A DNA stretch of 64,000 nt from an uncultured virus (IMG/VR IMGVR_UViG_3300032030_000052) (taxonomy: Duplodnaviria > Heunggongvirae > Uroviricota > Caudoviricetes). Within the stretch, counting starts at the first letter, position 1. Every line of letters begins with the position of its first letter. The position numbers and the translations under genes were made by a program. The stretch is taken from the IMG/VR virus record IMGVR_UViG_3300032030_000052. One strand, 5' to 3'. This document shows positions 10,766 through 58,617 of this stretch, in pieces. The notes beneath the pieces were generated by a model. That model did not search any database. It was not told the origin of the DNA and saw nothing but the letters and a program-made list of their open reading frames with translations.

Positions 10766-10775
10766 ACTTTTCACC

Positions 10776-12560: not shown

Positions 12561-12576
12561 TTAAGCATCACTCTCC

Positions 12577-13041: not shown

Positions 13042-13048
13042 TTTGATT

Positions 13049-13630
13049 TCACTCCTTCAATTTCTTAATCGATACAGCAATCGCTAATGCTGAAGATGTT
13101 AACGCCAAAGTGGGACCCGCATATTCGAGAATGTTCTGAACAGCTTTACGGCCTTTCGACACTTCCTCTGTTCGCTCACTCTTGAGTCTGGAATATGTGT
13201 CTTCCATCTGCCAACGATTGATCTGAGCACGAAGTTCAGCATCCGTCATGTTAGACAGATCAAACTTTTTCGCTTTTGGTCGAGTGAGTCTCTCGATATC
13301 AGAAGCGGAGCGGACAAGCTTTTCTCCAGTTTCTGATATCTTCTTCCACTCTTCCGTGTCTTCTCTTGCCCAGCGATTAGGATCTTTGAGTACTGTTTCA
13401 ACGTCTTCATCTTTTACTCGCTGGTCTTTCTTCTTGAGTTTGTTCTTACGAATCTCAGCAGCATATCGCTTTTCACCTCGTTCGTTTAGAGAACCATCGG
13501 GATTGCGATATTTATTGGCTCCGATACGACCGCCTATCTTCTTCGCAAACTGTCCAGTCTTTGGATCGTGATTCGGATTGAAATGGATAAGAACAGCGCG
13601 AGGATCACCAGTGTAATCAACGATTCCCAT
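13049..13630 (-). CDS. HFNPNH-motif protein 3
   Basis: VLIHFNPNHDPKTGQF, YRNPDGSL, MTDAELRAQINR, C-terminal hydrophobic helix. Confidence 0.8.
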   Translation of the reverse strand: MGIVDYTGDPRAVLIHFNPNHDPKTGQFAKKIGGRIGANKYRNPDGSLNERGEKRYAAEIRKNKLKKKDQRVKDEDVETVLKDPNRWAREDTEEWKKISETGEKLVRSASDIERLTRPKAKKFDLSNMTDAELRAQINRWQMEDTYSRLKSERTEEVSKGRKAVQNILEYAGPTLALTSSALAIAVSIKKLKE

Positions 13631-13931
13631 TTTGATTTTTCACCGCCTTTTTAGATTTTACGTCACGGTATAATTGATCGCCAATTACAGCAAGAGCTGC
13701 TGCAACAGAGGCTCGACCAAACGAATATGCTACGGACTTTGTTAACGCTTTCACTCTCGCTTCAGGGTATTTGAGTTTGACTGTCGCTAGTCTTTCTGCT
13801 GCAAAACCAGCCCCGACAGCAGCGCCTATTGCAGTAGCACGAACAGCGGTCGAACCGATTTTACTCTTCGAAAACTTACCGGTCTTCGGATCATGATTCG
13901 GGTTGAAATGGATAAGATATTCATCATACAT
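13617..13931 (-). CDS. HFNPNH-motif protein 4
   Basis: MYDEYLIHFNPNHDPKTGKF; start chosen by GAGGT RBS. Confidence 0.75.
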   Translation of the reverse strand: MYDEYLIHFNPNHDPKTGKFSKSKIGSTAVRATAIGAAVGAGFAAERLATVKLKYPEARVKALTKSVAYSFGRASVAAALAVIGDQLYRDVKSKKAVKNQNGNR

Positions 13932-13941
13932 GTGGTCTACC

Positions 13942-14301
13942 TCACTCAGTTTCTCGATCAGTTTCGAAGCCAGCTTGTTCTCTGATTCTCCAACCGAGTT
14001 TATCGATTTGTTGTTCAAACGACTTAGCTGCCGTTCCGGAAGAAGGCGGGTCGAATAACATCCGTACGTTCAAGACAGTGTAAGTCTTAACCATATTAAG
14101 AAGCTTATCATCGCCAATAAAGTCCTGCCACATAGCGGTCTTATCATTGATCTCAAAACCCTCTTTGGGACCTACGCCGAGTTGAACCAGTTCTGCCAGA
14201 GTCGTATTGATATGAAGGATGATATCATCGTCGAATGACTCATCCATTTCGACGATTCCACCGACTCCCATTTTTACAGAGGTTAGAATACTTTCGTTCA
14301 T
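13942..14301 (-). CDS. head-tail adaptor
   Basis: MNESILTSVK...FDDDIILHIN...FDPP motif. Confidence 0.75.
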   Translation of the reverse strand: MNESILTSVKMGVGGIVEMDESFDDDIILHINTTLAELVQLGVGPKEGFEINDKTAMWQDFIGDDKLLNMVKTYTVLNVRMLFDPPSSGTAAKSFEQQIDKLGWRIREQAGFETDRETE

Positions 14302-14319
14302 GATATTACTCCTTTCGGG

Positions 14320-14401
14320 TAAAAAGAAAGAGTCCGTGTGCTGACACGAACCCTCGCTAGGTTTTTCAAAAGCGAAAAGAGCACGTTCTAACCTCTCTCC
14401 T
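14320..14401 (-). ncRNA. candidate short RNA (promoter motif to terminator, no ORF)
   Basis: 25-bp motif at 14402-14426; hairpin plus T-run ending near 14320. Confidence 0.4.
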
Positions 14402-14439
14402 CATAAAAGCGGATGTTTTTTTCGCGTGCCCTAGAAATT

Positions 14440-14510
14440 GGCAGACCTGCGCCGTCCTGCCTCGGATTTAACCGATACTGATGCGTGGCAAGGACGACGG
14501 GGTTTCTGCC
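14440..14510 (-). ncRNA. unidentified structured RNA 4 nt downstream of the tRNA
   Basis: Nested stems GGCAGA/TCTGCC, CGTCGTCC/GGACGGCG, TGCC/GGCA and apical hairpin TCGG-TTAAAT-CCGA. Confidence 0.45.
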
Positions 14511-14514
14511 GGAG

Positions 14515-14587
14515 TGGGCGCAGCCGGACTCGAACCGACAACCTACTGCTTATGAGGCAGCAGCTCTAACCATTGCGCTATACGCCC
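14515..14587 (-). tRNA. tRNA with CAT anticodon (Met or Ile2), CCA not encoded
   Basis: Cloverleaf: GGGCGTA/TGCGCCC acceptor, GCTGC-CTCATAA-GCAGT anticodon arm, GTCGG-TTCGAGT-CCGGC T arm. Confidence 0.9.
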
Positions 14588-14593
14588 CGAATA

Positions 14594-14625
14594 GAAAAGA
14601 GGAAGTATCGATGTGATACTTCCTC
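14594..14625 (-). terminator. intrinsic terminator directly upstream of tRNA
   Basis: GAGGAAGTATC-ACATC-GATACTTCCTC-TTTTCT. Confidence 0.7.
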
Positions 14626-14633
14626 GATTTAGT

Positions 14634-14768
14634 TCATTCTTCGTCTGTTTGCTTCTCTTCTCGTTCATTAGGTCTGGGAAGAAAATGTCTGTCATAATCA
14701 ACGCCGTCTTCTTTTAGGCATACGCGATCATCGTCTGTGAAAATCAGAGGCTTCTTGTCATTACTCAT
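14634..14768 (-). CDS. small hypothetical protein (44 aa)
   Basis: MSNDKKPLIFTDDDRV..., read manually; overlaps upstream stop (ATGA). Confidence 0.5.
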   Translation of the reverse strand: MSNDKKPLIFTDDDRVCLKEDGVDYDRHFLPRPNEREEKQTDEE

Positions 14769-15523
14769 AGTTTCACCTTCATTCCTTCCTTTGCTAATTC
14801 GTTCTTGACTGCCTCGTAATTGTCGAGGATGTCCTGAACTTTCAGAAAGCTCGAAGCTGGTTTGTCGCTTATCTTCTTTAGAGCCTCATTCGCTCTAAAG
14901 ATGATGATTGGATCGTGAGCTTTGTTGTATGTGCCACGGTTGTTATCGTCAACCATACCGTCATACTTACTCTGCATGCGTTCACAATACTCTTTCGTAC
15001 TCTTGTAATAATACGACGCTTCCATAGCGTGGGAGAAAATGGAATAGGCTACTCGCCAATCATTGTCTGTCTTTATGTTGTCGGGATCGAAGCCGCGAAA
15101 CTCTTTTTGTTCTTGCTCGTTTCCAACGTTATAGTTCACGAGTTGCGTTTGAACAGACTTCAAATCCTTGATTAGATCTTTCTTGTTCAGATTCTTGAAC
15201 TCGTCGATGCGATCTTTTTCCGTCGCCATCTTGAGATCCTTTATGGTCTCGTACTTGTGCTCAGCGATAAATTGGGCACCGCGGTACATTACGAGATATT
15301 TCGCAAACGGACCCTTGTATACTTTGTTGTCCCATGAATCTTCATCACGATACGTGTACACCCATTTGCCGTTGTCTTTGTATTTATCAGCGTCGAAGTA
15401 TTTTCCGGTCACGCTGTTCAATCTTGTTCCGGCTTTCAGAAACGTACCATTAGCGGTTGTGAATCGACCAGTTTGCGAATCATGATTCGGATTGAAATGA
15501 CTCAACCATTCGCAGTAGTCCAT
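14765..15523 (-). CDS. HFNPNH-motif protein 5 with globular (possibly ART-like) domain
   Basis: WLSHFNPNHDSQTGRF; shares LKAGT...KDLK...YD..xD..PI motifs with 16045-17187. Confidence 0.75.
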   Translation of the reverse strand: MDYCEWLSHFNPNHDSQTGRFTTANGTFLKAGTRLNSVTGKYFDADKYKDNGKWVYTYRDEDSWDNKVYKGPFAKYLVMYRGAQFIAEHKYETIKDLKMATEKDRIDEFKNLNKKDLIKDLKSVQTQLVNYNVGNEQEQKEFRGFDPDNIKTDNDWRVAYSIFSHAMEASYYYKSTKEYCERMQSKYDGMVDDNNRGTYNKAHDPIIIFRANEALKKISDKPASSFLKVQDILDNYEAVKNELAKEGMKVKL

Positions 15524-15544
15524 GAGTATTCCTCCAATCTTAAC

Positions 15545-15740
15545 TTATGAATAGATTCGTGGTGCCTTGTTAATCGTATCGATAAGCTTCTCAGATTTAT
15601 CGTTTCCAATTTCGCAGCACATATCAATCAAACTGTTGAATGTCATGGATGCATCTTTGCCGTCAATGATATATATCGTTTCGACATAGTCTCCAGACTT
15701 GTATGCTTCTTTGCTGCTTACCGTTACGAAATAATACTTA
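15545..15740 (-). pseudogene. 5'-truncated ORF remnant fused to truncated tRNA
   Basis: Open frame KYYFVTVSSKEAY...KAPRIYS* with no N-terminal start or RBS. Confidence 0.5.
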
Positions 15741-15791
15741 CGACCACCCGGTTATGAGCCGGGAGCTCTAACCAACTGAGCTTAACGGCCC
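15741..15791 (-). pseudogene. truncated tRNA(CAT) lacking T arm and 3' acceptor strand
   Basis: GGGCCGTTAAGCTCAGTTGGTTAGAGCTCCCGG-CTCATAA-CCGGGTGGTCG, then unrelated sequence. Confidence 0.75.
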
Positions 15792-16044
15792 TAAATAGAA
15801 AAAGAGGAAGTCTCGATGTAAGGCTTCCTCGATTTGTTATTTGTTTTTTCGATTCTCTGCTTCTTTCTTTATCGATTCACGAATCATATCATGGTCGATA
15901 CATTTGGTTCCGACATATATGTAAACCACTGCTTTGTCTGTTTCTTTTTCATCGATAGTGCCAATTCACATATATGCCTCAACGGCATTTTCGAATGCAT
16001 AATCCATTCTTATCGCCAACCCTTTTTGTTCACATTAACCCAAA

Positions 16045-17187
16045 TTAAATTCGGGTTAGCAATTTTTTGATATCGACATTGCCCTTATCATTATTGATGG
16101 CTGCAAGTTCTTTCATATGAGTTGGTAATTCGGAAACGCCTGCTTTCAAAAGTGTTTTTAAGGTGCCGGTCTTCATAGCTCTAGTCACCTCGGTCTCTCC
16201 TTTTTTAATGACTCCGCTTTGAGGATCGAGGAGGATGAGCGGTGCCTCTGCGAGTTGATCTCCGATATCATGATAGTCGTGGAGTGCATCATAACCAGCA
16301 TCTTTAAGCGCCTTTGTTAATATATCTGAATCTTTTCCGCGCTTCACCATAGCATAAACGCCAACATAGAAATCGTCGTTACCACGTTCACCAAGTGCCT
16401 GTCTAAACGCTTTTTCGATAAAATCGGGCGAGCATAAACCAAGAAATGGTTTTTGTCTACGTGCCTCTGCGACAAGCGTATCACGAAGGGCTTGCTGATA
16501 TTGTGGATTTTCTTTCCATAAAGCATCGAAAATCTGTCGGGCTTTCTGTTCTGTTGGAATTTTCAAATCCTTTATGGCTTCATATGTGGCGTCATATCTT
16601 TTTCCAGTACCAGCCCAGTCGGCTAGCAACGTCATATATACAGCACGATCTTTCGGCTTATACGCACCGTAGGTTATGCCTGCTTCCTTTGAGATGTCTC
16701 TTCCTGCAATGCCTTCCATTCGATGTATAAGCGTTCCAGCCTTGAGTATTTCGGTCTCTTCATCGAGTGCTTGAGTCATGACGTCCTGAAACTGCTTTTT
16801 GTCAGTAACACCAGCATCGAGAAGTCCTTTGATTTTTTCAGTCGCGTGCAGACGATGAGCAATAATGATACCGGCAGTCACACCAACTGCCGCGACTGCG
16901 CCTATTGTTGCAATTTTGAGGGCCTTCTTTTGCTGTTCAGTTAGTCCTTTCTTTTTAGAGTCGGATTCATTATTAGAGATACCCATCTTTTCTCTAATCC
17001 GATCTTTCTTAATACCCTCTCGCATTTCGTTTATCATCTTATTATACGACTTACTATCGGTTTTGTCAAGTTTACCTCCAGAACGTCCGCCTTTCTTATC
17101 CGTAAACTGTCCGTTATCCGGATCATGATTCGGGTTGAAATGGATAAGAACTGCTCTAGGGTCATTCGTGTAATCTATACCATTCAT
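16045..17187 (-). CDS. HFNPNH-motif protein 6 with TM helix and possible ART-like domain
   Basis: VLIHFNPNHDPDNGQF; hydrophobic helix; LKAGTLIHR...GYDALHDYHD...PLILLD. Confidence 0.8.
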   Translation of the reverse strand: MNGIDYTNDPRAVLIHFNPNHDPDNGQFTDKKGGRSGGKLDKTDSKSYNKMINEMREGIKKDRIREKMGISNNESDSKKKGLTEQQKKALKIATIGAVAAVGVTAGIIIAHRLHATEKIKGLLDAGVTDKKQFQDVMTQALDEETEILKAGTLIHRMEGIAGRDISKEAGITYGAYKPKDRAVYMTLLADWAGTGKRYDATYEAIKDLKIPTEQKARQIFDALWKENPQYQQALRDTLVAEARRQKPFLGLCSPDFIEKAFRQALGERGNDDFYVGVYAMVKRGKDSDILTKALKDAGYDALHDYHDIGDQLAEAPLILLDPQSGVIKKGETEVTRAMKTGTLKTLLKAGVSELPTHMKELAAINNDKGNVDIKKLLTRI

Positions 17188-17250
17188 AATCGTGTCCTCC
17201 TTAAAGTCAACAATTCGTAAAAAGATAGAGAAGGTGTATCCTTCTCTTGT

Positions 17251-17317
17251 AGACTGACAGGGAATCGAACCCTGATACTTGCTGGTTACCCAGTCGTTCC
17301 TTCAACTCTAGTCTCTC
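17251..17317 (-). ncRNA. tRNA-like RNA A (degenerate)
   Basis: Perfect T arm CAGGG-TTCGATT-CCCTG, CTGG-GTAA-CCAG arm, AGACT/AGTCT closing stem; promoter motif 17318-17342 and terminator 17219-17247. Confidence 0.6.
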
Positions 17318-17342
17318 CATTATATTCCTTGTAGATTTCGCG

Positions 17343-17756
17343 TCATCGTTTCCACGGACATGTATCATTCGGTCGACGCTCGACAATTCCATTTTGATTT
17401 GCTAGACTAAAGTCGCCGTAGTGTATCGCATCATGCGTTCGCTTGCATGTGCTTATAAGATACTCGGGATTCAAGAGGATGTCAGACTTTCTGATAATAT
17501 CCTCTTTTCTTATAGGATTCATGTGATGTACGAGAATTCGACCATGCATCTCATATCCTTCGAGTCCGAGATCACAGCCGTTATCTCTGATAATGACTTC
17601 TCGCTTGGCGTCTTCCCAGAGACTTGAATGATAGAACGTTTGATTGAGCCACCGGTCGTATCCGAAAGTTTCCTCTCCGACTCTTCCGTCAAGTTTGAGA
17701 TATTCGAAACGCTCCTTGAACGTTCTAAGCTTGATGAGCTCTGAGTAGGTTCGCAT
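17343..17756 (-). CDS. HNH endonuclease (terminase-associated)
   Basis: RDNGCDL...VHHMNP...THDAIH; near small terminase. Confidence 0.85.
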   Translation of the reverse strand: MRTYSELIKLRTFKERFEYLKLDGRVGEETFGYDRWLNQTFYHSSLWEDAKREVIIRDNGCDLGLEGYEMHGRILVHHMNPIRKEDIIRKSDILLNPEYLISTCKRTHDAIHYGDFSLANQNGIVERRPNDTCPWKR

Positions 17757-17822
17757 GTTTTACTCCTTCTATAATGGAAAGCTGTCCAAAAACCAACTCA
17801 CAATACGAAAGGAGTATGTATC

Positions 17823-18578
17823 ATGAGTAATCAGGACACTATAAAGAAACTGGGGGCCGTTGTTAACGAGAACCTGCCCCACATTCTGACTGGAGTGGCA
17901 GCGGTCGGTGTAGTCACCACAGCTATTGAATCGGCGAAAGCTGCACTCAAGATCAATGACATGGACACTAACGAAGAGGATGATCGTAAGGCATCGGAAA
18001 AGGCGAAATCCGTATTCTTTGCACTTCTCCCTCCGGTAGTATCTGGAGCGCTTACGCTCGGGTGTCTGATTTCATCCGACGTAGTACACACCAAGCGTTA
18101 CACGTCCCTGCTCGGCGCGTTCGTACTTGCGAAAGGCGAACTGCCGAAGTATAAAGAGGAACTTGCTAAGATTGTGAGTCCGGAAAAGAAGAAAGAGATC
18201 GAAAGACAGATGGCAGAAAACAGAGTCAAGGAAAACACTACTGTCGAAGCGGCGGCTTCGCGGTACCTTGACGAAAGCAAGTATGTCAAACACAGAGTCG
18301 TCGATCTGGTTACCGGAGCCACACTCAAAGCATCCTATGCAGCACTGCTTAGAGGTGAGACAGAGGTTGCAAAGGAGATCGCGAGAACGGGACATTGCAC
18401 GCTTGAGACGTTCTACTCGTTTGTTACGGATGAAGCAGACTATCCGGAGATTGCTACAAGAATCTACTGGGATCAGGAAGAACGCAGAAACCAGATGGAT
18501 CTTCACATCGGTGCTGAGATCGAACCCGAAACGGGAGAGATGTACTATACCATTGACTATGAGTATGAGACCCGATAA
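17823..18578 (+). CDS. DUF6353-like protein, the only convincing plus-strand gene
   Basis: RBS GAAAGGAG; NLPHILTGVAAVGVVTTA N-terminus paralogous to genes at 55.5-60 kb. Confidence 0.8.
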   Translation: MSNQDTIKKLGAVVNENLPHILTGVAAVGVVTTAIESAKAALKINDMDTNEEDDRKASEKAKSVFFALLPPVVSGALTLGCLISSDVVHTKRYTSLLGAFVLAKGELPKYKEELAKIVSPEKKKEIERQMAENRVKENTTVEAAASRYLDESKYVKHRVVDLVTGATLKASYAALLRGETEVAKEIARTGHCTLETFYSFVTDEADYPEIATRIYWDQEERRNQMDLHIGAEIEPETGEMYYTIDYEYETR

Positions 18579-18655
18579 CGAGTGACAAACTGACAGCTTC
18601 CAAAAGTTATGAATTAGGGTTGGTTCTAAGAGGTCTACACGGCCTCTTAGTTTTT

Positions 18656-19003
18656 TTAGTCATCAACCTCTTCTTCGTCTTCAGGCGGCTTGTAACTACG
18701 CATTGCTTCAATAGCGTCAGCGAACAACTCGGCGACTTGCTTCTCCGAATGGATCTGTTCGGTCTTAGCCTCGAGTAATGTGTTCTCTTTTCTGAGTCTT
18801 TCGGTCTCGAGTTGGTATTTTGAAGTGGCAAGCTTCAGGAAGTGGATGATCTCTTGACCCGTTGCCGTTCCGTCAATGAGACGCTGCTCTGCTCGCTCAA
18901 CTGCAAGGGCTATCAGCTGCTTCTCTCTGTCTTCAGGGTTGTCTGCTGGAATTATCTTTCGAGTAATCGGCGGATCTGGATTGTTTGCCTTGGACTTTGC
19001 CAC
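18656..19003 (-). CDS. terS: terminase small subunit (putative)
   Basis: PEDREKQLIALA...GTA..Q.I.HFLKL..AIEAMRSY; first gene of the packaging cluster. Confidence 0.7.
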   Translation of the reverse strand: MAKSKANNPDPPITRKIIPADNPEDREKQLIALAVERAEQRLIDGTATGQEIIHFLKLATSKYQLETERLRKENTLLEAKTEQIHSEKQVAELFADAIEAMRSYKPPEDEEEVDD

Positions 19004-19059
19004 ACTTTACATCTCCTTTCTAAGAGATTGTCCACACTTTCTCTTTGTTTTGTCATTGT

Positions 19060-19198
19060 TTTTCACATACTTTTCGGCTGGTGCGTGAGACATATACACG
19101 AAAGGAGAAAAGGCCCGGTGCTTCTACTTCGAAAGGAGGTATGGCTATATGGCTTAGCCTAGGGAGCAGACACGCACCAGCTGAAAAATATGTGAAAA
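19060..19198 (-). ncRNA. candidate structured RNA with anti-Shine-Dalgarno segments
   Basis: 28-bp inverted repeat 19060-19087/19171-19198 enclosing CCTCCTTTCG and TCTCCTTTCG. Confidence 0.5.
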
Positions 19199-19333
19199 CT
19201 GCCATGGGAAAAAGCGAAATGTTTTTTGGAAAATTTCCCCCGCGGGATTTTTGAAGATAGCTGCGATGAGGGAGGGGGTGTATTTTTCAGACCCCTCCCC
19301 CGGGTCACGGCAATTGTGCACCCGTCCTATGTT

Positions 19334-19603
19334 TTAGGACAGGATTTGTTCGTCAGCTCGAACTTTTCGATAAACGTTCATGAAATCAAGAGAAATAATT
19401 TCATCAATCGCACGTTCAATCTCAGCGTTGTTCTCTTCGTCAGTCAGTTGAGACGAAGTTCTTGCGATTCTTGCAAGATAGCCGCAAGAATTGTAACCGT
19501 GAGTTGAATCCCAAACAAACCACTCATTGAACTGAGTAAACGGCGAAAAAGGATTATCGAAAGTCGTCAACGCCACAGGTGCGCTGGAAACTCTTTCACT
19601 CAT
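19334..19603 (-). CDS. conserved hypothetical protein
   Basis: LTTFDNPFSPFTQFNEW...SCGYLARI. Confidence 0.75.
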   Translation of the reverse strand: MSERVSSAPVALTTFDNPFSPFTQFNEWFVWDSTHGYNSCGYLARIARTSSQLTDEENNAEIERAIDEIISLDFMNVYRKVRADEQILS

Positions 19604-19614
19604 TACAATTCACC

Positions 19615-22488
19615 TCAACTCTTCTTGAAATATTTATTCACTGTTGAAGTTGAAACTCCGACAGCTTTTGCGATTTCATCAACTGTGTATCCAGAATTTT
19701 TCATAGCTTCGATCTTGTTTTGCTTTGCTGTAGAGATCGTCGTAGTCTCACGAGGAGTCGCTCTTTCACGAAGCTTATCAAGATCTGTAGCTTTAAGTAT
19801 CGAATAAAGCTGATTCTCAGATATAGCACCCGCCTGGATAGCCTCCCACTCACGGTCGGATATCTCGATAGCGTGTCTTTGGGCACCCACTTGTAGTCTA
19901 GCCGTTGTAAGAGCCTGCTGAGCTGCTTTCTTCTTCTCCTTAGAGGTCATATCTGGATTCTCCTGCCTCTTAGCTTCCATAGTAGCGTTAGCCATTATCT
20001 GTGCTGCGCGTTCTCTGGGAGCATTAGCCTGTGCTATCTCAAGCTGATTGAGAAGATTCTTCCGCTCTTCGGCATATTTCTCCTTAGCCTCCTTGGAGTA
20101 CTGGATGCGCCCCGTGTTAACCATTTCAAGACGGGCTTTATTAGCCAAATCTTTCATGTAATTAGCATAGGATGCATAGAGTTCCTCTTGAGGTGTTCCA
20201 GAAGAGAGCTTACGGGCGTCTGTTTCCTCCGCCATGCGAGTTGAATCTTGCATGCGGACTTTCTCTTTGCCCTTTTTATCCGTATAAGTCTCGACAACGG
20301 ACTTATAAACGAGTGCGCCTTCAGGTTTTGTGGGATCATACCACTCTTTACCCTTCTGATTGACTTTCGGCGAGCCTTGACGCTTAAGAACTTGAACATC
20401 AGACGATGCTTTGGAGATCAGAGTCGATGCACCTTCGTGATAATCGCCATTTTCATCAAGATGTCCCTGATATTTCTTCTTGAGTTCAGCAATGGCATTA
20501 TCTTTCTCAGACTGTTTGTAATCCAGACCGTGTTTTGCGGCATCGATAACAACCATACTGTGACGAACAGCACGAGCGAGCTCCGCTTCTGTAGCACCTT
20601 TAAGAGTCATATCGGTAATTAGATTCGATACGATTCCCATTTGCATCTGTGTACTATCACCGCCGGTCTTAGGATTCTTCATAGGTTTGAATTCTTGACC
20701 ATTGCGGTAATAATGTTCAATGCCTTTGGCGTCTGTCTTGATCTCATCGTACTTGTAGGACTTAGAATCGAATCCCTCAAGTCCTTTGAGCGGCGGTGTA
20801 GAGTTAATCTTGATCTTGCTCTGTTCTGAATTGCACGGGACAACAAGAACTGTATCACCATCGAAGTCTGCTCCAGACAGACGCTCTGCTACTTTACTGC
20901 TAATACCAACAGCATCAGCAGCAGTCGGCGTGATTACACGTTTACCCTCTTTATTCTTGTTATTGACTTTGAGAATCGGGATCTCAAATGTTCCACCATG
21001 AGGAAATCTGATAAGAGCAACAGTCTCGCCGTCGTGGAATTGAGGAGCGAAGACCTCATTATCTTTGATGTCGGTAAGAGGAAGAATGACCTGATACTTC
21101 TGACGAGGGAGTGATGCTGCTTTCAAATGAACAGCGGCGGAATCGCAGTCATTGGCAAACGTCTCAAGCATGACTTTCTTCAATGTCGGATTCGTAAGAG
21201 ACGAGATCTCATCGAATTCCGCTTTCTTATCCATCTGAGACAGGGTAAGCTGTTTCTTGATAAGCTGAAGACTCTGCTTAGACAGGAACTGGGACGGAAG
21301 CTCTTTGCTCCATTCACCCCAGTCACCTTCGGTTCTGGTCTTATTGATAAGGCTAAGAGATTGAGCCTGACCGTCAGAACCGGTGAAACGACCATTGGGA
21401 TCGTCGTAATAGCTCTGACCGCCTCGTTCTTTAAGAAGCGCTCCGAACGGATTATCAGGATCAGATTTGATCTTCTTCAGAACTTCCATTTTAGGAGTGC
21501 TCTTATGCTTATTAGTGTTGAAGATAACATCGACACCATCAGGGAAGTCTTTAGGATCTCCGTAAACAGCCATTCCTTTGATGTAATGTGTTCCGTCGAC
21601 GAGAATTCGAACCTGAGCATATGCTGAATTACCAAGAGAAAGATCTTTTACACCTGGACGAAGCTCGACAACTCCGTCTTTCTTGATTCCACCATCTTCA
21701 GCATAGCGAATCTGCATTCTCTTACTATCCATAGATTCAGGATATTCGAATGCTTTCTTGAAAGTGTCTCCGCCATCATAGCTGATATAGTCTTTGACGG
21801 TGTGGATTTTGCTGGAGTCGTAAACTTCTTTGTACTCGGTATCTTTCGGGCACAACACCATGGTGATCGTCTGTCTACCCGGATTCGTGACCTGCGCAAC
21901 GCCACGAGTATAAATCGGATAGCCATCAGCTTCGAGAATGGCAAGAGCCTGACCGAACTTCTCTCTAGAAACGCCGAGTTCTCTCTCAACACCTTCGCCT
22001 ACGTCAAGCATTCCCTTTTCAGCGATGGTCTTCTTGAGAATATCAGCTGTTGCTTGAGCCGCGTTCATTCGCTTCTCAGAATTCTCATTGAGAAGAGATC
22101 GAACAGACGAGTCATTCTTGTAACCCATGATCCGAGCTATTTCATTGAGGCTCTTACCATCATCTCTCAGAGACTTAGCACGAGCGACTTCAAGAGAGCG
22201 GCGTTCACTCTTAGCAATTGCCTTATATGCTCTCAGCTGAGTTGTCGTGATCTCCTGACCATCAGGAAGCTCTTTGTTGATAGCATCGACAATCTGCTTC
22301 TCCGACAGACCTTTCTTATGAAGCTGCTCCACTCGAGACAAGAAGTCACCAGAGTGCTGATACGGGTTTTCACCGCTTCCCCATGGATAACGACCAGAAC
22401 GTCGCTTAATACCATAGTGTCTCAAATCAGTCGGCTCTTCAAGTTCATCGAATCGCCGTTTCTTAATAGCATCAGCTACGTGGTTCAT
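19615..22488 (-). CDS. putative single-chain two-barrel (YonO/RdRP-like) RNA polymerase with HTH domains
   Basis: QVRI...KGM, LIRFPH and LSGADFDGD motifs; N- and C-terminal HTH-like segments. Confidence 0.8.
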   Translation of the reverse strand: MNHVADAIKKRRFDELEEPTDLRHYGIKRRSGRYPWGSGENPYQHSGDFLSRVEQLHKKGLSEKQIVDAINKELPDGQEITTTQLRAYKAIAKSERRSLEVARAKSLRDDGKSLNEIARIMGYKNDSSVRSLLNENSEKRMNAAQATADILKKTIAEKGMLDVGEGVERELGVSREKFGQALAILEADGYPIYTRGVAQVTNPGRQTITMVLCPKDTEYKEVYDSSKIHTVKDYISYDGGDTFKKAFEYPESMDSKRMQIRYAEDGGIKKDGVVELRPGVKDLSLGNSAYAQVRILVDGTHYIKGMAVYGDPKDFPDGVDVIFNTNKHKSTPKMEVLKKIKSDPDNPFGALLKERGGQSYYDDPNGRFTGSDGQAQSLSLINKTRTEGDWGEWSKELPSQFLSKQSLQLIKKQLTLSQMDKKAEFDEISSLTNPTLKKVMLETFANDCDSAAVHLKAASLPRQKYQVILPLTDIKDNEVFAPQFHDGETVALIRFPHGGTFEIPILKVNNKNKEGKRVITPTAADAVGISSKVAERLSGADFDGDTVLVVPCNSEQSKIKINSTPPLKGLEGFDSKSYKYDEIKTDAKGIEHYYRNGQEFKPMKNPKTGGDSTQMQMGIVSNLITDMTLKGATEAELARAVRHSMVVIDAAKHGLDYKQSEKDNAIAELKKKYQGHLDENGDYHEGASTLISKASSDVQVLKRQGSPKVNQKGKEWYDPTKPEGALVYKSVVETYTDKKGKEKVRMQDSTRMAEETDARKLSSGTPQEELYASYANYMKDLANKARLEMVNTGRIQYSKEAKEKYAEERKNLLNQLEIAQANAPRERAAQIMANATMEAKRQENPDMTSKEKKKAAQQALTTARLQVGAQRHAIEISDREWEAIQAGAISENQLYSILKATDLDKLRERATPRETTTISTAKQNKIEAMKNSGYTVDEIAKAVGVSTSTVNKYFKKS

Positions 22489-22491
22489 GAC

Positions 22492-23172
22492 TTATTCCTC
22501 CTTCGCTCTTTGTCTCTCGGCTATCCGAGAAGTATTGATGATAATATCCATGATGTCTTTAATTTCGTCCGTATCAGGCTCGCAACCATTGATTTCACCA
22601 GACTGATAGATTCTCAGTTCCGTATGAATATCACGAGGTTTGATTTTATACTCGAGACAGAACAAGCCAGCGTACCCCATGAGCTGATCCATACTTGCAG
22701 GATGTGCTCCAGACTTGTAGTCGTGGATACGAAGATTGTTATCTCTGAATGAGATCGTATCAGCCGTTCCGAAACAGAATTCAGAATAATACAGAGGCTG
22801 CTCGACCTGCATCCGATTCTCGATACCATCGTTGATATACATCTTCGCGGTCTCGAATACTTCTTTCGGAAGATTACCGATACGCTTGAGAAGAGTCATA
22901 CCATACGGAGCAGTCTTTCCCTCTTCTCCGATACGATACTTCGTGTAGATGTAATTCTCAACACCCATGACCAGATTGCGAACGCTCGTAACTTTGTGAT
23001 TCATTACGATCTGACTCGCTACATACTCATGGAGTTCTGTTCCGAGAGCCGTTCGATACTGATTTCGAACTCGTTCAGCGATCTTTACATCGTCATACCG
23101 CATCCATGCATTCTGAGACGGACTGAACAATGCGTGCTGACCTCTAAGCTCGAAATGCTTTTGCCAAATCAT
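22492..23172 (-). CDS. PD-(D/E)xK exonuclease (Cas4/RecB-like)
   Basis: GTELH, EQPL..GTAD, IHDYKSG, QL..YA. Confidence 0.8.
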   Translation of the reverse strand: MIWQKHFELRGQHALFSPSQNAWMRYDDVKIAERVRNQYRTALGTELHEYVASQIVMNHKVTSVRNLVMGVENYIYTKYRIGEEGKTAPYGMTLLKRIGNLPKEVFETAKMYINDGIENRMQVEQPLYYSEFCFGTADTISFRDNNLRIHDYKSGAHPASMDQLMGYAGLFCLEYKIKPRDIHTELRIYQSGEINGCEPDTDEIKDIMDIIINTSRIAERQRAKEE

Positions 23173-23437
23173 GCAATACCTCCTCTACGTTTTCCGGACT
23201 GACGAAACGACTGAACGACATCTTGTCATAGAACTCAACCCAGTATTCTTGATTAGGCTGCTTATGAGCCGAACGCCATCGCTTGCATTCAAGCAGAGCC
23301 CACTTGTCACGCCATAAGACAAGCAGGTCCGGAACGCCCTGATGAACGTCCACCTTGAACACACGACAACCGGGAAGAACTTCAGCTAGTCGTTTCTTCA
23401 ATCCGTCCTGAAATTTCCCTTCAGGATTTCGTGCCAT
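23144..23437 (-). CDS. VRR-NUC-like nuclease / resolvase
   Basis: GVPDL...LECK...QPNQ. Confidence 0.8.
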   Translation of the reverse strand: MARNPEGKFQDGLKKRLAEVLPGCRVFKVDVHQGVPDLLVLWRDKWALLECKRWRSAHKQPNQEYWVEFYDKMSFSRFVSPENVEEVLHDLAKAFRA

Positions 23438-24021
23438 ACCTATTCTCCTTTCACGTTTTTCATTGAGATCATTCGCTATGATTTACCATCAACTGAAAAA
23501 CGAAAAGAGAAAGAGAGGTAAATTATACTCATTTCTGAGGACATTCTAACCTCTCTCCTCATAAAAGCGGATGTTTTTTTCGCGTACTGTCAGATTCTCA
23601 CCAGATTTCTTAAAGACCTCTCAATTAACATCAATGTTACCATGGTTGCCGTCTCTTTGACAAATCTGATTTCACGAATAATCTTTAACCCAGTAAAACA
23701 ATCCGAAAGTTTTAATATCTTAAAGATTATTGATATGAATCTTGCAGTACGCCATAAAACACCTCACTTACCATCAGCAATCACTTGGACTGCTTCTTCT
23801 GGTCTTCGCGTGTCTTCTTCGCACGCCGTCTTCTCTCAACACGGTTCTCACCATGCTTGAACTGACAGTCGCGCCAAGAATCGGGATCACGCTTGATCGC
23901 CCGAGTAATTGTTCTCGTCATACTTGCCATAGCTCTCACCTCCTTTCGCCATCGCATAATATTTGTTGTATTGAAACTGCAAACGAAAATATCTCCGTCA
24001 TGCAGACACAACCTTGTTGGA

Positions 24022-24234
24022 TTACTTCCATCGTCTTTTGGTTAGCCATACCTTTTGCTGAACATAGCTATAGACGAAGATCTCTCCGCTACGTGACCAT
24101 AGCTCGATGCAATCCGGAATTGCCTTATGGGGATACCAACGTAATATCGACTTCTCAAAATTTGGATATTTCTTCTTGAAGTCCTTATAATATTTTATTG
24201 GATTGTATTTTGGCGGACGTCCTCCAGCACCCAT
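24022..24234 (-). CDS. hypothetical protein
   Basis: MGAGGRPPKY start with GAGGTG RBS. Confidence 0.55.
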   Translation of the reverse strand: MGAGGRPPKYNPIKYYKDFKKKYPNFEKSILRWYPHKAIPDCIELWSRSGEIFVYSYVQQKVWLTKRRWK

Positions 24235-24249
24235 GTAAATCACCTCTTT

Positions 24250-24760
24250 TCGTGCTATTTTTGGGTATATTTTCAACCATGATTTTGACCCATTTTTTAG
24301 GCATTTTTTAGACCTCATTTTTACCCCTATTTTTAGCCCATTTTTGACCTATTTTTTAACCTCGAAAAATGGTCTGTGGACAAAAATTGAAAAAAACTCA
24401 TAAACTTTTTTTATTTAGAAATTTCTAAAATATCTTTTATATGAGTTTTTGCAAAAAAATGGTCAGAGGGCCAAAAAACCTAGGCGCCAGGCCAAAAACC
24501 CGTGACCACTTTTTTTTTCTGTGGACAAAAAAAATGGGCAGAAATGGTCATTTTTGTGATAATTGTGTGAAAATTGTGATAGTTTTGTGAAAATTAGTGT
24601 TCTGTGGCCAAAAATTTTTGTCCACAAAAACAAAAAGTGTCCACAGAATTTGCCATTTTTGGGGGTAAATTTTTCAATTTTTCGGGGACGATTTTTTAGC
24701 CCGATTTTGACCCCTTTTTACCCTTATTTTTGACCTCTTTTTTTGCCCCTATTTTTACTC
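24250..24760. other. putative replication origin
   Basis: Largely non-coding and AT-rich with A/T tracts; TTGTCCACA-like 9-mers at 24375, 24520, 24603, 24618 and 24637. Confidence 0.6.
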
Positions 24761-25014
24761 GATTTTCGGACTTCAAAGAGACCTCCAAAATCGACCCGTT
24801 CAAGCCTCATTTTCTCCCAAATTTCACCATTGAAATCGCGCTGAAGCCACTCATCATAAGCCATTGATTTTTCTTCTAAAGTGGCATCTGAACCGACTTT
24901 TTTCTCGATATAATGGCGAGCTACACGAACTATCAGGGGTAGTTCTGCGGGGTAAATACTCCTCGCATAATCCTGATTTGTCATGGTCTTAATTGCTGTA
25001 ACCTTGATTTCCAT
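24724..25014 (-). CDS. hypothetical protein
   Basis: ORF with GGAGG RBS. Confidence 0.6.
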   Translation of the reverse strand: MEIKVTAIKTMTNQDYARSIYPAELPLIVRVARHYIEKKVGSDATLEEKSMAYDEWLQRDFNGEIWEKMRLERVDFGGLFEVRKSSKNRGKKRGQK

Positions 25015-25160
25015 CGATTATTTCCTCCGTCTCTCACGTCCGTACCGCTCCTTACAAGAACCTTATAAGTGCCCTCAACGAGTCTAAACAGACCTTCAAC
25101 AGAGCCTCTATTCGACCCTAAATCAACCCTCAAAAGAAGCGTTACGGACGTGAAATAACC

Positions 25161-25526
25161 TCAAATATGGACGAAAGCAGCAGCGCTTTCCTTAGCTTTT
25201 TGAATGATTTCGATGGGCGCGTGACCCTCAAATTCAATCCAAATGTCGAGTAAATTGAGATTCGTTTTGAGCTCAACGTAAGCGTCATACCAGTAACCAT
25301 ACTTCTCAATCAGCTTATCTCGAACAATCAAAAGTGACGTATTTACGTTGTTTTTGAGGTCTTCGCCATTGATTATTCCGCGCTCATACAAGCCGATAAG
25401 AGTATGTGAGACGCCACAAAGTTCCCCAAGTTCTTCCTGTGAAATACCCAGAGCACGTCTCAAAGCCCTCATTTTATAGTGAAATTTATGGTCGTCAAAA
25501 CCGAATTTTTCAACGATTTTAGCCAT
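25161..25526 (-). CDS. XRE-family HTH regulator
   Basis: LRRALGISQEELGELCGVSHTLIGLYERG. Confidence 0.85.
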   Translation of the reverse strand: MAKIVEKFGFDDHKFHYKMRALRRALGISQEELGELCGVSHTLIGLYERGIINGEDLKNNVNTSLLIVRDKLIEKYGYWYDAYVELKTNLNLLDIWIEFEGHAPIEIIQKAKESAAAFVHI

Positions 25527-25530
25527 GGTC

Positions 25531-25872
25531 TCACTCCTTTTCGAAGTTGATTGGAGTGCCGAAAGTGCCTACTGAACCACTGCTATCGGTCGGTTTGAAC
25601 TCCTCTCCGGGCATCGGAAAGCGCCATCTGAACATCAAATAGTTGGCCGCATCGATCAAATGTTCAGTATTTTTGTCTTTTTTAAATGCATCGAGGCACA
25701 TTTCCGCCGTTTTTATGGCGTCAACCCGTCCTTCAGCGAAGTTTTTTCGTGCCGGACCGTATTTATGATACGAAATTTCCACGCGATGCTTCATTTCATT
25801 CACAAAAGCATCAGAAAATTCGCTCGAAAGCACGGAATTGAAGTTGTTGAGGTTGTCATAACGCTTATCCAT
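25531..25872 (-). CDS. hypothetical protein, possible all-alpha NTP pyrophosphatase fold
   Basis: HKYG...EHLIDAANYLMF. Confidence 0.55.
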   Translation of the reverse strand: MDKRYDNLNNFNSVLSSEFSDAFVNEMKHRVEISYHKYGPARKNFAEGRVDAIKTAEMCLDAFKKDKNTEHLIDAANYLMFRWRFPMPGEEFKPTDSSGSVGTFGTPINFEKE

Positions 25873-26221
25873 TGCCGTTTTCTCCTTCTTTTTCGATTTT
25901 TACAGGTGTAAAACTCCAGTAACCATGGCGATATTCACTCTCTGAGATGTTGAAATGCCGAATTCCACCAGTTTCTTGACAAATTTGCATCATATTGAGC
26001 ACTGTTCCGCCACATTCAAGCCCTTCTACCATGGCAAAATAGCTTCTTATGATATGAATTTGCTCATATTTGCCATCTTTTTCAATCGGCATCTTCACTT
26101 TCCACTCGTCGACCATGAAAAATCGACCAGTTTTGAAGTATTCAGAGTCAAATCTGAGCTGAATCGTCAGTCCCGGAACGGAATTTACCTCTGAAAGCAC
26201 CATGGACTCCTGTTTAGTCAT
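25865..26221 (-). CDS. hypothetical protein
   Basis: Coupled ORF with RBS. Confidence 0.6.
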   Translation of the reverse strand: MTKQESMVLSEVNSVPGLTIQLRFDSEYFKTGRFFMVDEWKVKMPIEKDGKYEQIHIIRSYFAMVEGLECGGTVLNMMQICQETGGIRHFNISESEYRHGYWSFTPVKIEKEGENGNG

Positions 26222-26397
26222 GCAAAATCACCTCTTTCAGCCTCTTCGTCTGCTTTTTCCCTCAACCAATCAAGTAAAGCTTCTTCTGAATCAGCTTTTC
26301 CGTCGATAATAGCACCTGCTTGTATCATATGTAGATAAATAGCGAGTTCGTCGTCAGATCTACTTCTTATCTATTCGCCATTTGTCACGTCTTCCAT
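26218..26397 (-). pseudogene. small ORF with in-frame TAG at codon 9
   Basis: MEDVTNGE*IRSRSDDELAIY...LLDWLREK; resembles 32105-32305. Confidence 0.6.
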
Positions 26398-26403
26398 CCC
26401 CTT

Positions 26404-26685
26404 TTAACCCTTAAAATGCTTTACTACATCAGTTGTGTTGATGATATCGTGCATACAATAGGTCTTTTCAGCTGCTGTGAGTATCGACTTAACCATTTCA
26501 CCCCGGTTAAAATCGATTTTTAAGCCATCCATGAGCTTCTCAGGCGTCGGAATCAGCCTTTTCATGTCGTGAGCATTGAGAATTCCCTTCTTTTTCAGCC
26601 TGTAACTCGGGTCATGACGTGCTGTAGCAGCCTGAATTCGAGCCATAATGCCCATTGCACGCTTTCTTGCATCAGTTCTGTCCAT
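26404..26685 (-). CDS. hypothetical protein
   Basis: Coupled ORF. Confidence 0.55.
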   Translation of the reverse strand: MDRTDARKRAMGIMARIQAATARHDPSYRLKKKGILNAHDMKRLIPTPEKLMDGLKIDFNRGEMVKSILTAAEKTYCMHDIINTTDVVKHFKG

Positions 26686-26927
26686 CAGTTTCCACCTCTT
26701 TCAGCTTCAAAATCCTTCAAAACCTTGCGATAACAGCCGTTACAGTGATGTTTTCTCACGCTCGGACAGTCATAACAAGGGTTTTTCTTGCGTTCTTTAG
26801 CGATTTTCCTCGTCTGGAACCGCCTTTTTATCCGTTTTTCAAGCCAATTCCGCAAAATCAGCGAGAAAATGAACAGTAAAATCGGTAATCCAATGAAAAT
26901 CAGCTCAATCCATGGGCTTTTGAACAC
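26685..26927 (-). CDS. small membrane protein with Cys cluster
   Basis: N-terminal TM helix; CxxC...CxxC. Confidence 0.55.
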   Translation of the reverse strand: MFKSPWIELIFIGLPILLFIFSLILRNWLEKRIKRRFQTRKIAKERKKNPCYDCPSVRKHHCNGCYRKVLKDFEAERGGN

Positions 26928-27109
26928 GTCACGTCCCTCCTTTTATCGCAACTGGAGGCTGCTGCACCGTAAATCGAGTTAATTCCCTTCTTTACAGTGC
27001 TGAGATTATACTGTCCGCTCTCCAGCGCTTCTGCTGTGTCAGTATCGCCTTTGTTGCGAAGCATAGCGATGATGTAATTGAGATGGTTTGCCTCTGACAT
27101 ATCTTTCAC
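26900..27109 (-). CDS. hypothetical protein
   Basis: Coupled ORF; KKGINSIYG resembles a PolB motif fragment. Confidence 0.5.
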   Translation of the reverse strand: MKDMSEANHLNYIIAMLRNKGDTDTAEALESGQYNLSTVKKGINSIYGAAASSCDKRRDVTCSKAHGLS

Positions 27110-27672
27110 CCTTTCACTTTGATCCCGTCATGCTGCAACCAGTCGAGAAAACTATTCGCTTTCCGTTTATACATGCCTACAACCATGGGTCCAGCTGGTC
27201 CGGGCTCGATTATATCCTGTCTTACATAATCAGTACCGCTCAGAACCTTTGTATAATACCGCAGAATCAACTGAGCACATACAATGGATTCTTCAGGACG
27301 ACTGTATGCAACATTTCTTCGATAGAGAGTACAATGGTTCTCGATTTTCTCGTTAAGTGTTGCCGGGATGTTGTTACGATTTCCAAGTGACATGTAACGG
27401 ACATAATCGTTCAACACAAGCTGTGCATCAGCGATGTCAATTACTTTGTCCATATTCCAGTCGTAATAATTACAAGTGTCACCATCAGGATAGAATCGAT
27501 AATGATAATAGCCGTCATAAACGCCATACGTGTCCTCATAAGCTTCCAAATACGCAATGTATTCTTTATCGTACTGTGTGATACTGCGTCTCTCTGCGCT
27601 TGCTGTAACGCTACAGAGCGATATAACCATGGTGATAATGATCGTAATGACCGATTTGATATAAGTCTTCAT
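27106..27672 (-). CDS. putative secreted protein
   Basis: Signal-peptide-like N-terminus ending ASA; RBS AGGAGG. Confidence 0.65.
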   Translation of the reverse strand: MKTYIKSVITIIITMVISLCSVTASAERRSITQYDKEYIAYLEAYEDTYGVYDGYYHYRFYPDGDTCNYYDWNMDKVIDIADAQLVLNDYVRYMSLGNRNNIPATLNEKIENHCTLYRRNVAYSRPEESIVCAQLILRYYTKVLSGTDYVRQDIIEPGPAGPMVVGMYKRKANSFLDWLQHDGIKVKG

Positions 27673-27687
27673 AAGTACACCTCCTAA

Positions 27688-28776
27688 TCAGGTTTTATGT
27701 TCAGATACGTCCTTGATATCCTTTAGAACCTCTTCAAGCTTCTTTTCGATGGTGTTGAGTTTAGTCTGGGTCTTACTGCGTCTGTTGAGGAATTCTCGAA
27801 TGACTGCTTCCTTACCCAACTCATCTTCAAGGAAATCACATTTTTGCCTCAGCTCAGCAGAGGAGCCAACCCAAGACCAAATGCAGTCAAGCATGAAGCT
27901 AATCGTTGGATCTCCATTGATTGCATTATCATCAACGGTGAACTTTGTTTTGTACTTATCAAAGATACACTTAATTCTCCCCTCCAAAATCTCAACCCTG
28001 GTTCTACTTCTAGCATAATCTCTGATGATCTTAGTGATGGTGTTACAAATGTTCGACGGATTATATGTGATGGTTTCGTCACTAAGACGTGTTCGATCTG
28101 TATACTCCTTGTAAACGAACTTCAAGAGATCCTTTTCGTAATCGTCAACCATCTGCTTTCCAACGGCTGCTCGGTGTTTTCGTTCGAGGTCGACAACCGA
28201 GAATAAGTATTCAACACAAGCCTTGTCGCCAAAATACGGAGAAGGAGGTGTAATGTCAAACTTAGTGCAGTAATCACGAATGAGTTCGTTGATATCTGAT
28301 TTGTGATCAACGTCTTCATATAACCATCCATATCTTCCCATATTCAGACTATCTTTAAGCTTCTGATTCTCTTCTTTCAACTTCTCAATTTCTGACTCTT
28401 TCTCATAAACAGCATGCTTGATGCTATCAGCAATGAGCGTATGTGAATCCACCTCAGGTTCTTCACCAGTCACTCGTTTATGCAGCTTCTTAAGACTGTT
28501 GAGTGCACCCTCATCCATCAATCGCTCTGTTAGTGGCGGAATCTTTTCTGTCTTAGCGTACTTTGCTTCCATGCCGGGATAGTAGAAGATGCCGTGTTCC
28601 GTCCGTAACCATGCGATAAGATCGTCAGCGCTAAATAGATAAACAGCACCAGTCTTCCTAACCTCAATGAATGAAGTATCATGTTTGTCATTAACGAAAT
28701 ACTTGTTCAGTGCGCCGATTACAGTTTCAAAAGACAAATCGTTCAGATTAAACCCATCTTTGTAAGTAATAGCCAT
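27688..28776 (-). CDS. hypothetical coiled-coil protein
   Basis: 362 aa ORF with RBS. Confidence 0.7.
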   Translation of the reverse strand: MAITYKDGFNLNDLSFETVIGALNKYFVNDKHDTSFIEVRKTGAVYLFSADDLIAWLRTEHGIFYYPGMEAKYAKTEKIPPLTERLMDEGALNSLKKLHKRVTGEEPEVDSHTLIADSIKHAVYEKESEIEKLKEENQKLKDSLNMGRYGWLYEDVDHKSDINELIRDYCTKFDITPPSPYFGDKACVEYLFSVVDLERKHRAAVGKQMVDDYEKDLLKFVYKEYTDRTRLSDETITYNPSNICNTITKIIRDYARSRTRVEILEGRIKCIFDKYKTKFTVDDNAINGDPTISFMLDCIWSWVGSSAELRQKCDFLEDELGKEAVIREFLNRRSKTQTKLNTIEKKLEEVLKDIKDVSEHKT

Positions 28777-28797
28777 GGTTATTCGCTCCTTTCATAG

Positions 28798-28910
28798 AAA
28801 AAAAAACATAAAGACCCTGATCCGCTTGTCCGCAGACCAGAGTCTATTCGAAATAAAGTCAAATCAAATCAGTGTCGTCCGTATTTGGGAGAACACGGGT
28901 TGATTTAACC
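28798..28910 (-). ncRNA. candidate small RNA with C-rich loop
   Basis: Promoter motif 28911-28935, hairpin CCGTGTT-CTCCCA-AATACGG, terminator 28813-28844 plus T-run, no ORF. Confidence 0.5.
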
Positions 28911-28969
28911 CATTATATAAGATGTAAATGTTGCGAAGCTCAGGTTTCATCGCTTTTGATTGATTAGTC

Positions 28970-29471: not shown

Positions 29472-29624
29472 CAAATCACTCCTCTCACTTCGCCACAACA
29501 GGATCTTTAGGTCCTCCAACCTTCGCCTGTTTATAGTTGATTTCATCTGTATCCTTAATCGTCATCTTTTATAAGTCGGTTCATCTGTTCCATTGCACTT
29601 TCTTCTCTCATCTTTTAACCATCC

Positions 29625-58606: not shown

Positions 58607-58617
58607 TATCACTCCTT

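Follow-up and report, generated by a model that had tools for sequence, protein, structure and literature searches.

A 957-residue phage-1706-family protein as a predicted single-chain two-barrel RNA polymerase with fused helix-turn-helix modules, a putative head-protease site and an associated promoter-like motif

In PMC2919709, the protein of phage 1706 represents one of five families of YonO-like polymerases with eight invariant residues, and its role is called an enigma; 10.1101/842583 describes an HHpred match of the family to RNA-dependent RNA polymerases (RdRPs), a DxDGD motif and helix-turn-helix (HTH) domains at both ends, and calls the gene a supercluster signature gene. Here, we analyse a relative of the 1706 protein encoded by the uncultured virus IMGVR_UViG_3300032030_000052. 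The window, a stretch of 64,000 nucleotides, spans bases 1-64000 of a virus record that is 83,155 bp long and has terminal repeats, and the protein is read from an open reading frame (ORF) of 957 amino acids on the minus strand at 19615-22488; the plus-strand reading of this interval is not open and contains many stops. The two-barrel polymerase identity is not new, as it is in print and in the PHROG and RefSeq labels. Four points not mentioned in the published passages are added here, namely a proposed location in the virion, a His site, the promoter-like motif and further modules at the N-terminus. A literature search that reached few subscription papers found no biochemical test of the polymerase family and no publication tying the polymerase to virions or to the motif; PMC13432834, PMC5883640, PMC5759034, PMC5513430 and PMC7302621 hold no activity or location data on it, and the same is true of the available passages of 10.1101/2022.11.23.517428.

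The closest tested relative, YonO from Bacillus phage SPbeta, resembles the polymerase described here in being a single-chain two-barrel protein of about 100 kDa from a temperate phage, and is DNA-dependent in vitro (PMC5467207). It differs in belonging to a family separate from the 1706 proteins (PMC2919709) and in transcribing late genes; the word 'virion' is absent from the available text of PMC5467207, which leaves the promoter sequence undetermined. The Thermus phage proteins P23-45 gp96, which is found in the virion, P23-45 gp64 and P74-26 gp62 are likewise single-chain two-barrel phage RNA polymerases (RNAPs), and in P23-45 the enzyme of the virion works from a conserved AT-rich motif that precedes the pre-early genes, a precedent for the mechanism proposed below (10.1101/2022.12.01.518664). 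According to the same source, in the available text of which 'helix-turn-helix' does not occur, the virion enzyme forms part of a fusion with the tape measure protein and the phage has a second enzyme that is not in the virion, whereas the window polymerase is single and free-standing, with HTH modules and a head-type site. The RNAP of the crAss-like phage phi14:2 (6vr4) is virion-packaged, single-chain and two-barrel, but is more than twice as large (2166 residues in the structure), comes from an unrelated phage group and is a weak structural match to our model (E 0.03).

The polymerase gene and its predicted core elements are as follows.
19615-22488, minus strand: predicted two-barrel RNA polymerase in a single chain, HTH modules fused to it (PHROG 4291, phage-1706 family; predicted local distance difference test (pLDDT) score of the model 84.5)
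20092-21753, minus strand: predicted two-barrel core, residues 246-799, from fold comparison and motifs
21673-21678, minus strand: core residue D271
21607-21615, minus strand: core residues QVR
21571-21579, minus strand: core residue K304
20998-21009, minus strand: core residues RFPH
20854-20868, minus strand: core residues DFDGD

Sequence comparison confirms the 957-residue protein as a member of the phage-1706 family of YonO-like two-barrel polymerases, with full-length homology, HTHs at both termini and a place after a Cas4-like nuclease gene. PHROG 4291 ('RNA-dependent RNA polymerase') covers residues 18-956 (E = 0), and full-length orthologs include 1706 orf75, FP_oengus AUV56548 and the 'HTH DNA-binding domain protein' of actinophages from clusters AM, AU, AW, BI, CC, DJ and EL. 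Five orthologs from cultured phages, at 38-48% identity, share the neighbourhood, the catalytic motifs and the HTHs at both ends, and no difference of kind from the phage-1706 family was seen. In a tblastn search 250 of 50,697 phage records were matched, 249 of them along 80% or more of the length, the majority from Arthrobacter, Gordonia, Streptomyces and Lactococcus phages in which the same HTH label is usual; as regards orthology to YonO, no Bacillus phage appears among the named organism groups of these 250 records. A further 316 confirmed stretches were found in bacterial genomes and 523 in one-seventh of IMG/VR.

The initial annotation, made from the sequence of the window, had proposed a single-chain two-barrel polymerase from a few short motifs, and each of these is present: ADFDGD is an exact match at residues 540-545 (20871-20854), preceded by LIRFPH from residue 492 (21015-20998), by KGM from residue 304 (21579-21571) and by QVRI from residue 292 (21615-21604), and the N-terminus reads DLRH at residues 21-24, followed by YG. 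D.DGD alone arises in 368 of 20,000 shuffles of the 957-residue protein, and D[FY]DGD combined with R.P 38-55 residues upstream arises in none of 20,000. Among 120 relatives of 68-94% identity picked regardless of motifs, D[FY]DGD, R[FYH]P and Q[VI]R occur in all and Y[LIV]KGM in 117. An alignment of 83 sequences, the query included, was built from 155 loci, of which 82 remained after reduction at 85% identity; 19 of 174 loci had been excluded (11 cut at a contig start, two with apparent frameshifts, one without a stop, four with a variant His tag escaping the pattern and one full-length without the tag). Eight catalytic positions, D271, R294, K304, R494, P496, D541, D543 and D545, are invariant in all 83; the first five were not selection criteria, while DFDGD and the His-Gly tag were filters, so that their invariance in this alignment is circular and tells against using it as support. 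The eight invariant two-barrel residues listed in PMC2919709 (D, R/K, K; R-x-P; DxDxD) are all present, the correspondence being made by motif and spacing.

The fold comparison supports the same assignment. An AlphaFold2 model on the 83-sequence alignment (predicted template modelling score 0.75) was compared with 48,161 chains, and the best match was maize RDR2 (Z 15.2, 375 residues aligned, root-mean-square deviation 4.6), followed by QDE-1 (Z 13.6, 373, 4.4) and P74-26 gp62 (Z 11.0, 340, 4.8), and then by Pol I and African swine fever virus RNAP; unrelated helical bundles start at Z 9.8 in the same search. The first three alignments span residues 246-799, within which residues 461-553 match isolated domains of the double-psi beta-barrel (DPBB) type. 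Foldseek, which together with structure prediction was the check put forward in the initial annotation, returned 24 matches at E<=0.001; those listed are QDE-1 (E 5e-9), P23-45 gp64 (E 1e-6), gp62 and RDR2, and every match listed is a two-barrel polymerase. When the PDB was searched by sequence, neither the single protein nor the 83-sequence profile retrieved a polymerase, and the matches were weak HTH or chance ones; it takes a comparison of folds to see the link to polymerases. In NCBIfam the only matches were to HTHs and fell below threshold, and ESM Atlas gave unnamed clusters plus one RdRP cluster at 0.88, which we take as a lead only. A DPBB core is thus predicted by the model, and the polymerase proposed in the initial annotation is borne out by profile, model and fold search.

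The names given by PHROG and RefSeq imply a true RdRP, and eukaryotic RdRPs are indeed the best structural matches, with the Pfam RdRP profile matching 19 of 27 family members. Nevertheless, this reading is very improbable: modules of DNA-binding type lie at both ends of the protein, those phage enzymes of the superfamily that have been tested (YonO, P23-45 gp64 and gp96, and the phi14:2 enzyme) are DNA-dependent, and a DNA motif, described below, travels with the family. The protein is likely to be a DNA-dependent RNA polymerase, and that it is catalytically active is highly probable.

The HTH modules lie outside the core.
21781-22353, minus strand: N-terminal array of HTH, HTH and winged HTH, residues 46-236 (AlphaFold2 model pLDDT 92.9)
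19621-19737, minus strand: C-terminal HTH, residues 918-956 (Pfam HTH_38, E 4.5e-9; HTH_7, E 8.4e-8)

Four HTH-type modules appear to be fused to the polymerase core. The description of the protein as HTH-looking holds at the C-terminus by Pfam and at the N-terminus by three modelled folds; residues 96-130 give a weak Pfam HTH match, and the model of residues 46-236 resembles HTH, HTH and winged-HTH folds in a generic way (Z 6-7.3, all below 8). Elsewhere in the window, residues 113-162 of a 292-residue ORF (38772-39650, minus strand) resemble a highly conserved helical segment of the polymerase, residues 621-677 (hhalign probability 87.9, E 3e-6, 42% identity); this stretch is common to 28 proteins of 160-511 residues and looks like a stand-alone copy of a polymerase piece.

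In phage T4, the internal proteins and Alt are processed by the prohead protease gp21, the site of which ends in Glu. A comparable arrangement can be proposed for the N-terminus of the polymerase and for the head genes.
22417-22488, minus strand: N-terminal leader ending in L-R-H (residues 22-24, 22417-22425), predicted prohead-protease site
22357-22416, minus strand: conserved basic/aromatic stretch after the His, residues 25-44, candidate head-targeting tag (low pLDDT)
6700-8631, minus strand: protease-scaffold-capsid polyprotein (Peptidase_S78), with hydrophobic-x-His at residues 138, 158, 184, 253, 269 and 304
9950-17187, minus strand: six head-region genes with N-terminal L-x-H-F-N-P, mostly basic, candidate co-packaged internal proteins (9950-10789, 12577-13041, 13049-13630, 13617-14018, 14765-15523 and 16045-17187)

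The likeness to T4 lies in a short N-terminal leader and a hydrophobic-x-residue site common to the scaffold and capsid precursors; in contrast to T4, the site ends in His, the protease is of HK97/S78 type and fused to the capsid, and the cleavage is predicted. An N-terminal hydrophobic-x-His is present in the polymerase of all six genomes examined (L22-R-H24 in the window) and in 115 of 121 homologs, five of the others starting downstream and one reading A-A-H. The leaders are short and acidic (26% D/E, mostly 8-28 residues) and are followed by the basic stretch; the pLDDT is below 50 over residues 11-46. In 43 protease-capsid polyproteins, a hydrophobic residue stands at position -2 of His in 233 of 248 cases in the scaffold, whereas the figures for the capsid domain and for other long ORFs are 41 of 211 and 475 of 1535, and a His occupies the column just ahead of the capsid domain in 33 of the 43; in the window the last site (residue 304, 7720-7728) directly precedes that domain, and a mature capsid beginning just behind it would have 339 residues and 38 kDa. 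Such statistics in the scaffold are the pattern expected of a maturation-protease site, and the polymerase carries near its N-terminus the site that is common to the scaffold and capsid precursors, as prohead-protease-processed internal head proteins do. The other LxH sites noted in the initial annotation are real. The six tagged head-region proteins matched no Pfam family at E<=0.01, and no solved structural relative of the capsid polyprotein was found.

Independent information comes from phage 1706, in which the polymerase ortholog orf75 (38% identity) is labelled 'structural protein' in GenBank EU081845. The same label is attached to orf6, 7, 11, 12, 13, 17, 20, 21, 62 and 71, and with the portal, the capsid and two tail entries the total is 15; orf7 carries the same His site. 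In 2008, Garneau reportedly detected 15 virion proteins of 1706 by liquid chromatography-tandem mass spectrometry, and the labels may well derive from that work. Virion packaging, suggested in the initial annotation, gains indirect support from this label and from the hydrophobic-x-His statistics, while the presence of the window polymerase in virions is itself something we infer. Taken together, delivery in the virion is quite probable, and removal of the leader after the His, as judged from the conserved site, is nearly as probable.

The second element that accompanies the polymerase is a 28-bp DNA motif.
23558-23588, minus strand: motif copy ahead of the nuclease-Cas4-polymerase operon
57736-63998, minus strand: 13 clustered motif copies that precede short genes of early type, many of the copies standing right after a hairpin and T-run
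28909-49463, minus strand: six further motif copies, 5' ends at 28939, 37958, 43680, 43960, 44716 and 49463
14400-17778, both strands: three head-region motif copies at 14430 (minus), 17346 (minus) and 17748 (plus), the last ahead of a plus-strand gene at 17823-18578

The motif has a fixed spacing and consists of a C-G-C block, an A/T run, C-A, five free bases and T-a-T-w-A-T-G. There are 24 copies in the window genome, all on the coding strand; since the matrix was built on these copies, a null for them is circular, and what really tests the matrix is how it carries over to five other genomes. The window matrix finds seven copies in 1706, ten in Gordon, five in Bilo, 15 in Oengus and ten in Kenosha, all on the coding strand and none opposite, against 0-1 in Markov nulls; all six genomes scanned thus carry the motif, and the cultured phages that bear it infect Lactococcus, Arthrobacter, Streptomyces, Faecalibacterium and Gordonia. 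Of 75 polymerase loci (seven more of the 82, with less than 2.2 kb upstream, were left out), 74 have a copy in the 2 kb upstream, against one on the reverse strand and none inside the gene; the copies lie mostly 900-1000 bp from the polymerase and ahead of two nuclease genes. When records longer than 40 kb were picked by the exact DNA pattern, all 27 examined encode the polymerase (28 loci from such contigs among 80 listed of 142 matches). Only three of 77 pooled copies (79 before two low-scoring ORF-internal matches were dropped) fall within the structural modules, whose share of the genomes is 42-53%, and the motif is therefore an early or middle signal. A T-run stands just upstream of 11 of the 24 window copies, most of these behind a hairpin. 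The motif-driven cassettes of the initial annotation are thus real, and recognition of the repeated motif by the HTHs would fit its strict co-occurrence with the polymerase and its position. RNA runs X1 and X2, from one sample and available as contigs only, cover parts of 10000-29900, and in each a contig ends at 23550, which lies 4 nt within the transcript start (+1) that the motif at 23588 would predict; contigs from a single study cannot show a transcription start, and these ends were not counted, the loose end in X1 being presumably adapter-like.

Several further features of the window were noted. The plus-strand gene at 17823-18578 (DUF6353/PHROG 2152), set within the head region of the minus strand, has paralogs at 55472-56461, 57767-58621 and 59196-60071 and, with its own motif copy, resembles a cassette of promoter and gene that has moved. 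A 49-nt repeat, 96% identical between 14379-14427 and 23537-23585, carries the motif copies of the connector gene and of the polymerase operon. A tRNA-Met and a tRNA-like element of ambiguous anticodon lie at 14514-14587 and 60395-60470 (minus strand), with the motif copy at 60500 just ahead of the second. A perfect TTGACA-17-TATAAT at 17041-17069 (minus strand), inside ORF 16045-17187, may be chance or a host-read internal promoter.

In the scenario that we consider somewhat better than an even bet, the polymerase is loaded into the head, trimmed after L-x-His and starts early genes from the 28-bp motif through its own HTHs. The enzyme would be made from its own motif-led operon, would enter the prohead along with the other tagged proteins and would lose its leader to the prohead protease after L-x-His; the trimmed form would then be ejected with the DNA and would start the motif-led early cassettes through its HTHs. 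Its own operon would be among these, and the motif ahead of it would provide positive feedback and hence new enzyme for packaging. A more specific form, in which a sigma-free polymerase of about 104 kDa is addressed to the head by its His tag, is injected and opens its own double-stranded promoters with four HTHs, is put forward tentatively, its chances being a little short of even.

Instead, the polymerase might be a YonO-like non-virion enzyme made from an early or middle operon to transcribe late genes, and the motif a host sigma-A promoter, perhaps helped by an activator. The YonO precedent (PMC5467207) suggests such a role, the polymerase gene closes the replication region just ahead of the structural block, TATAAT-like boxes predominate in 1706, Gordon and Kenosha, and host RNAP can start a prophage. 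However, the 'structural protein' label of the 1706 ortholog and the conserved protease-type site at the N-terminus are at odds with a non-virion enzyme, and the fixed spacing and near-invariant non-sigma bases of the motif across Firmicutes and Actinobacteria hosts are at odds with a host promoter. If a sigma-A site is taken as a box with -11 A and -7 T plus a TTGACA-like -35 element at 16-18 nt, the -11 A, which sigma-A needs, is missing from all 15 Oengus copies, from nine of 24 window copies and from the majority of those that precede the polymerase operon; the match to the -35 element is near random in five genomes (2.2-2.9 versus 2.3-2.6). Among the genes common to the five cultured phages, no conserved activator and no evident HTH or sigma-type protein besides the polymerase was seen. 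The sigma-A reading of the motif is weakened by these base patterns, the late-gene enzyme as a whole appears unlikely, and recognition of the motif by the polymerase without host sigma is moderately favoured.

Nonetheless, a number of observations weigh against head delivery and motif-led early transcription. On the side of packaging, 1706 orf62 and orf71 are labelled structural, yet lie among replication genes and lack the site, so that the label list may hold co-purifying proteins; a loose [LIVM]xH near the N-terminus is found in 32 of 86 head-module genes and in 69 of 433 others, so that the bare tripeptide lacks specificity; only four of six genomes have a His site in the portal; and the full-length homolog L051 lacks the tag. 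With regard to the promoter, a TATAAT-like box with its -11 A is retained in 52 of 77 motif copies, the Oengus copies match TTGACA at 3-4 of six positions (mean 3.4 versus 2.45 at random), a 50-bp intergenic motif with TATAAT, present in five copies in phage Vardy, has been read as sigma-70-like (PMC9671010), and co-occurrence with the motif does not distinguish the polymerase from the remaining core genes. The late-gene role of YonO, its closest tested relative, also points away from early transcription (PMC5467207). Prophage induction is a weak point, as many relatives of the window phage are prophage-like and a prophage has no packaged enzyme to begin with; the first copies would have to come from a host-read promoter or from read-through, and only weak sigma-70-type promoter candidates were found, near 23663 and 23983.

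The immediate neighbours of the polymerase gene are conserved.
22492-23172, minus strand: Cas4-like exonuclease (PHROG 3953)
23144-23437, minus strand: small endonuclease (PHROG 93)
19334-19603, minus strand: 89-residue acidic protein (isoelectric point 4.4), candidate partner (PHROG 4303)

The endonuclease and the Cas4-like exonuclease directly precede the polymerase, in an order kept in Oengus, Gordon, Bilo and Kenosha. The gene for the 89-residue protein, which has no Pfam or ESM Atlas match, is next after the polymerase in 75 of 75 loci and in all five cultured phages, and this constancy raises the alternative that a virion-delivered enzyme needs this neighbour, or host sigma or RNAP, or that it makes short RNAs or pulls DNA in. 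The -10-like half of the motif and the fact that initiation by YonO alone is left open in PMC5467207 agree with a need for help. On the other hand, four HTH-type modules are built into the polymerase, the ortholog of the 89-residue protein in 1706, orf76, is labelled 'unknown' rather than structural and has no His site, and the motif copies lie promoter-like ahead of genes on the coding strand; we regard this alternative as improbable, slightly more so than the late-gene enzyme.

The polymerase family is large and usually labelled only 'HTH protein', and whether a minimal two-barrel enzyme can find its promoters by itself was left open for YonO (PMC5467207). Since there are a candidate promoter, candidate modules for its recognition and cultured phages that grow on laboratory hosts, this question is directly testable. 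If the preferred scenario of head delivery and motif-led transcription is true, it would yield a compact orthogonal polymerase-promoter pair and a readable cargo tag for these phage heads; in the sigma-free form, early transcription would be independent of the host, which could explain the spread of one phage lineage across Firmicutes and Actinobacteria hosts.

The window phage is a siphophage, with a protease-capsid fusion, a portal, a terminase, a primase-polymerase of 1408 residues and a helicase, and nearly all of its genes are on the minus strand; its relatives occur in many Lachnospiraceae, Oscillospiraceae and Clostridia records. The primase-polymerase fusion (49465-53691, minus strand; PHROG 4210) is a core gene of the phage family. 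An early-region protein of 219 residues (42442-43101, minus strand) contains an RNA polymerase alpha C-terminal domain (PF03118, E 6e-16) and could act on host transcription. The GC-rich intergenic stretch at 19004-19333 is probably the packaging end: seven of 13 related contigs end 345-388 nt past the polymerase stop codon, and cultured relatives end 337-458 nt past it. Just past the window, at 64773-69347, an integrase-like plus-strand ORF (64773-66068), which by eye we take to be of the tyrosine type, is followed by a block of small Gly/Gln/Pro-rich genes.

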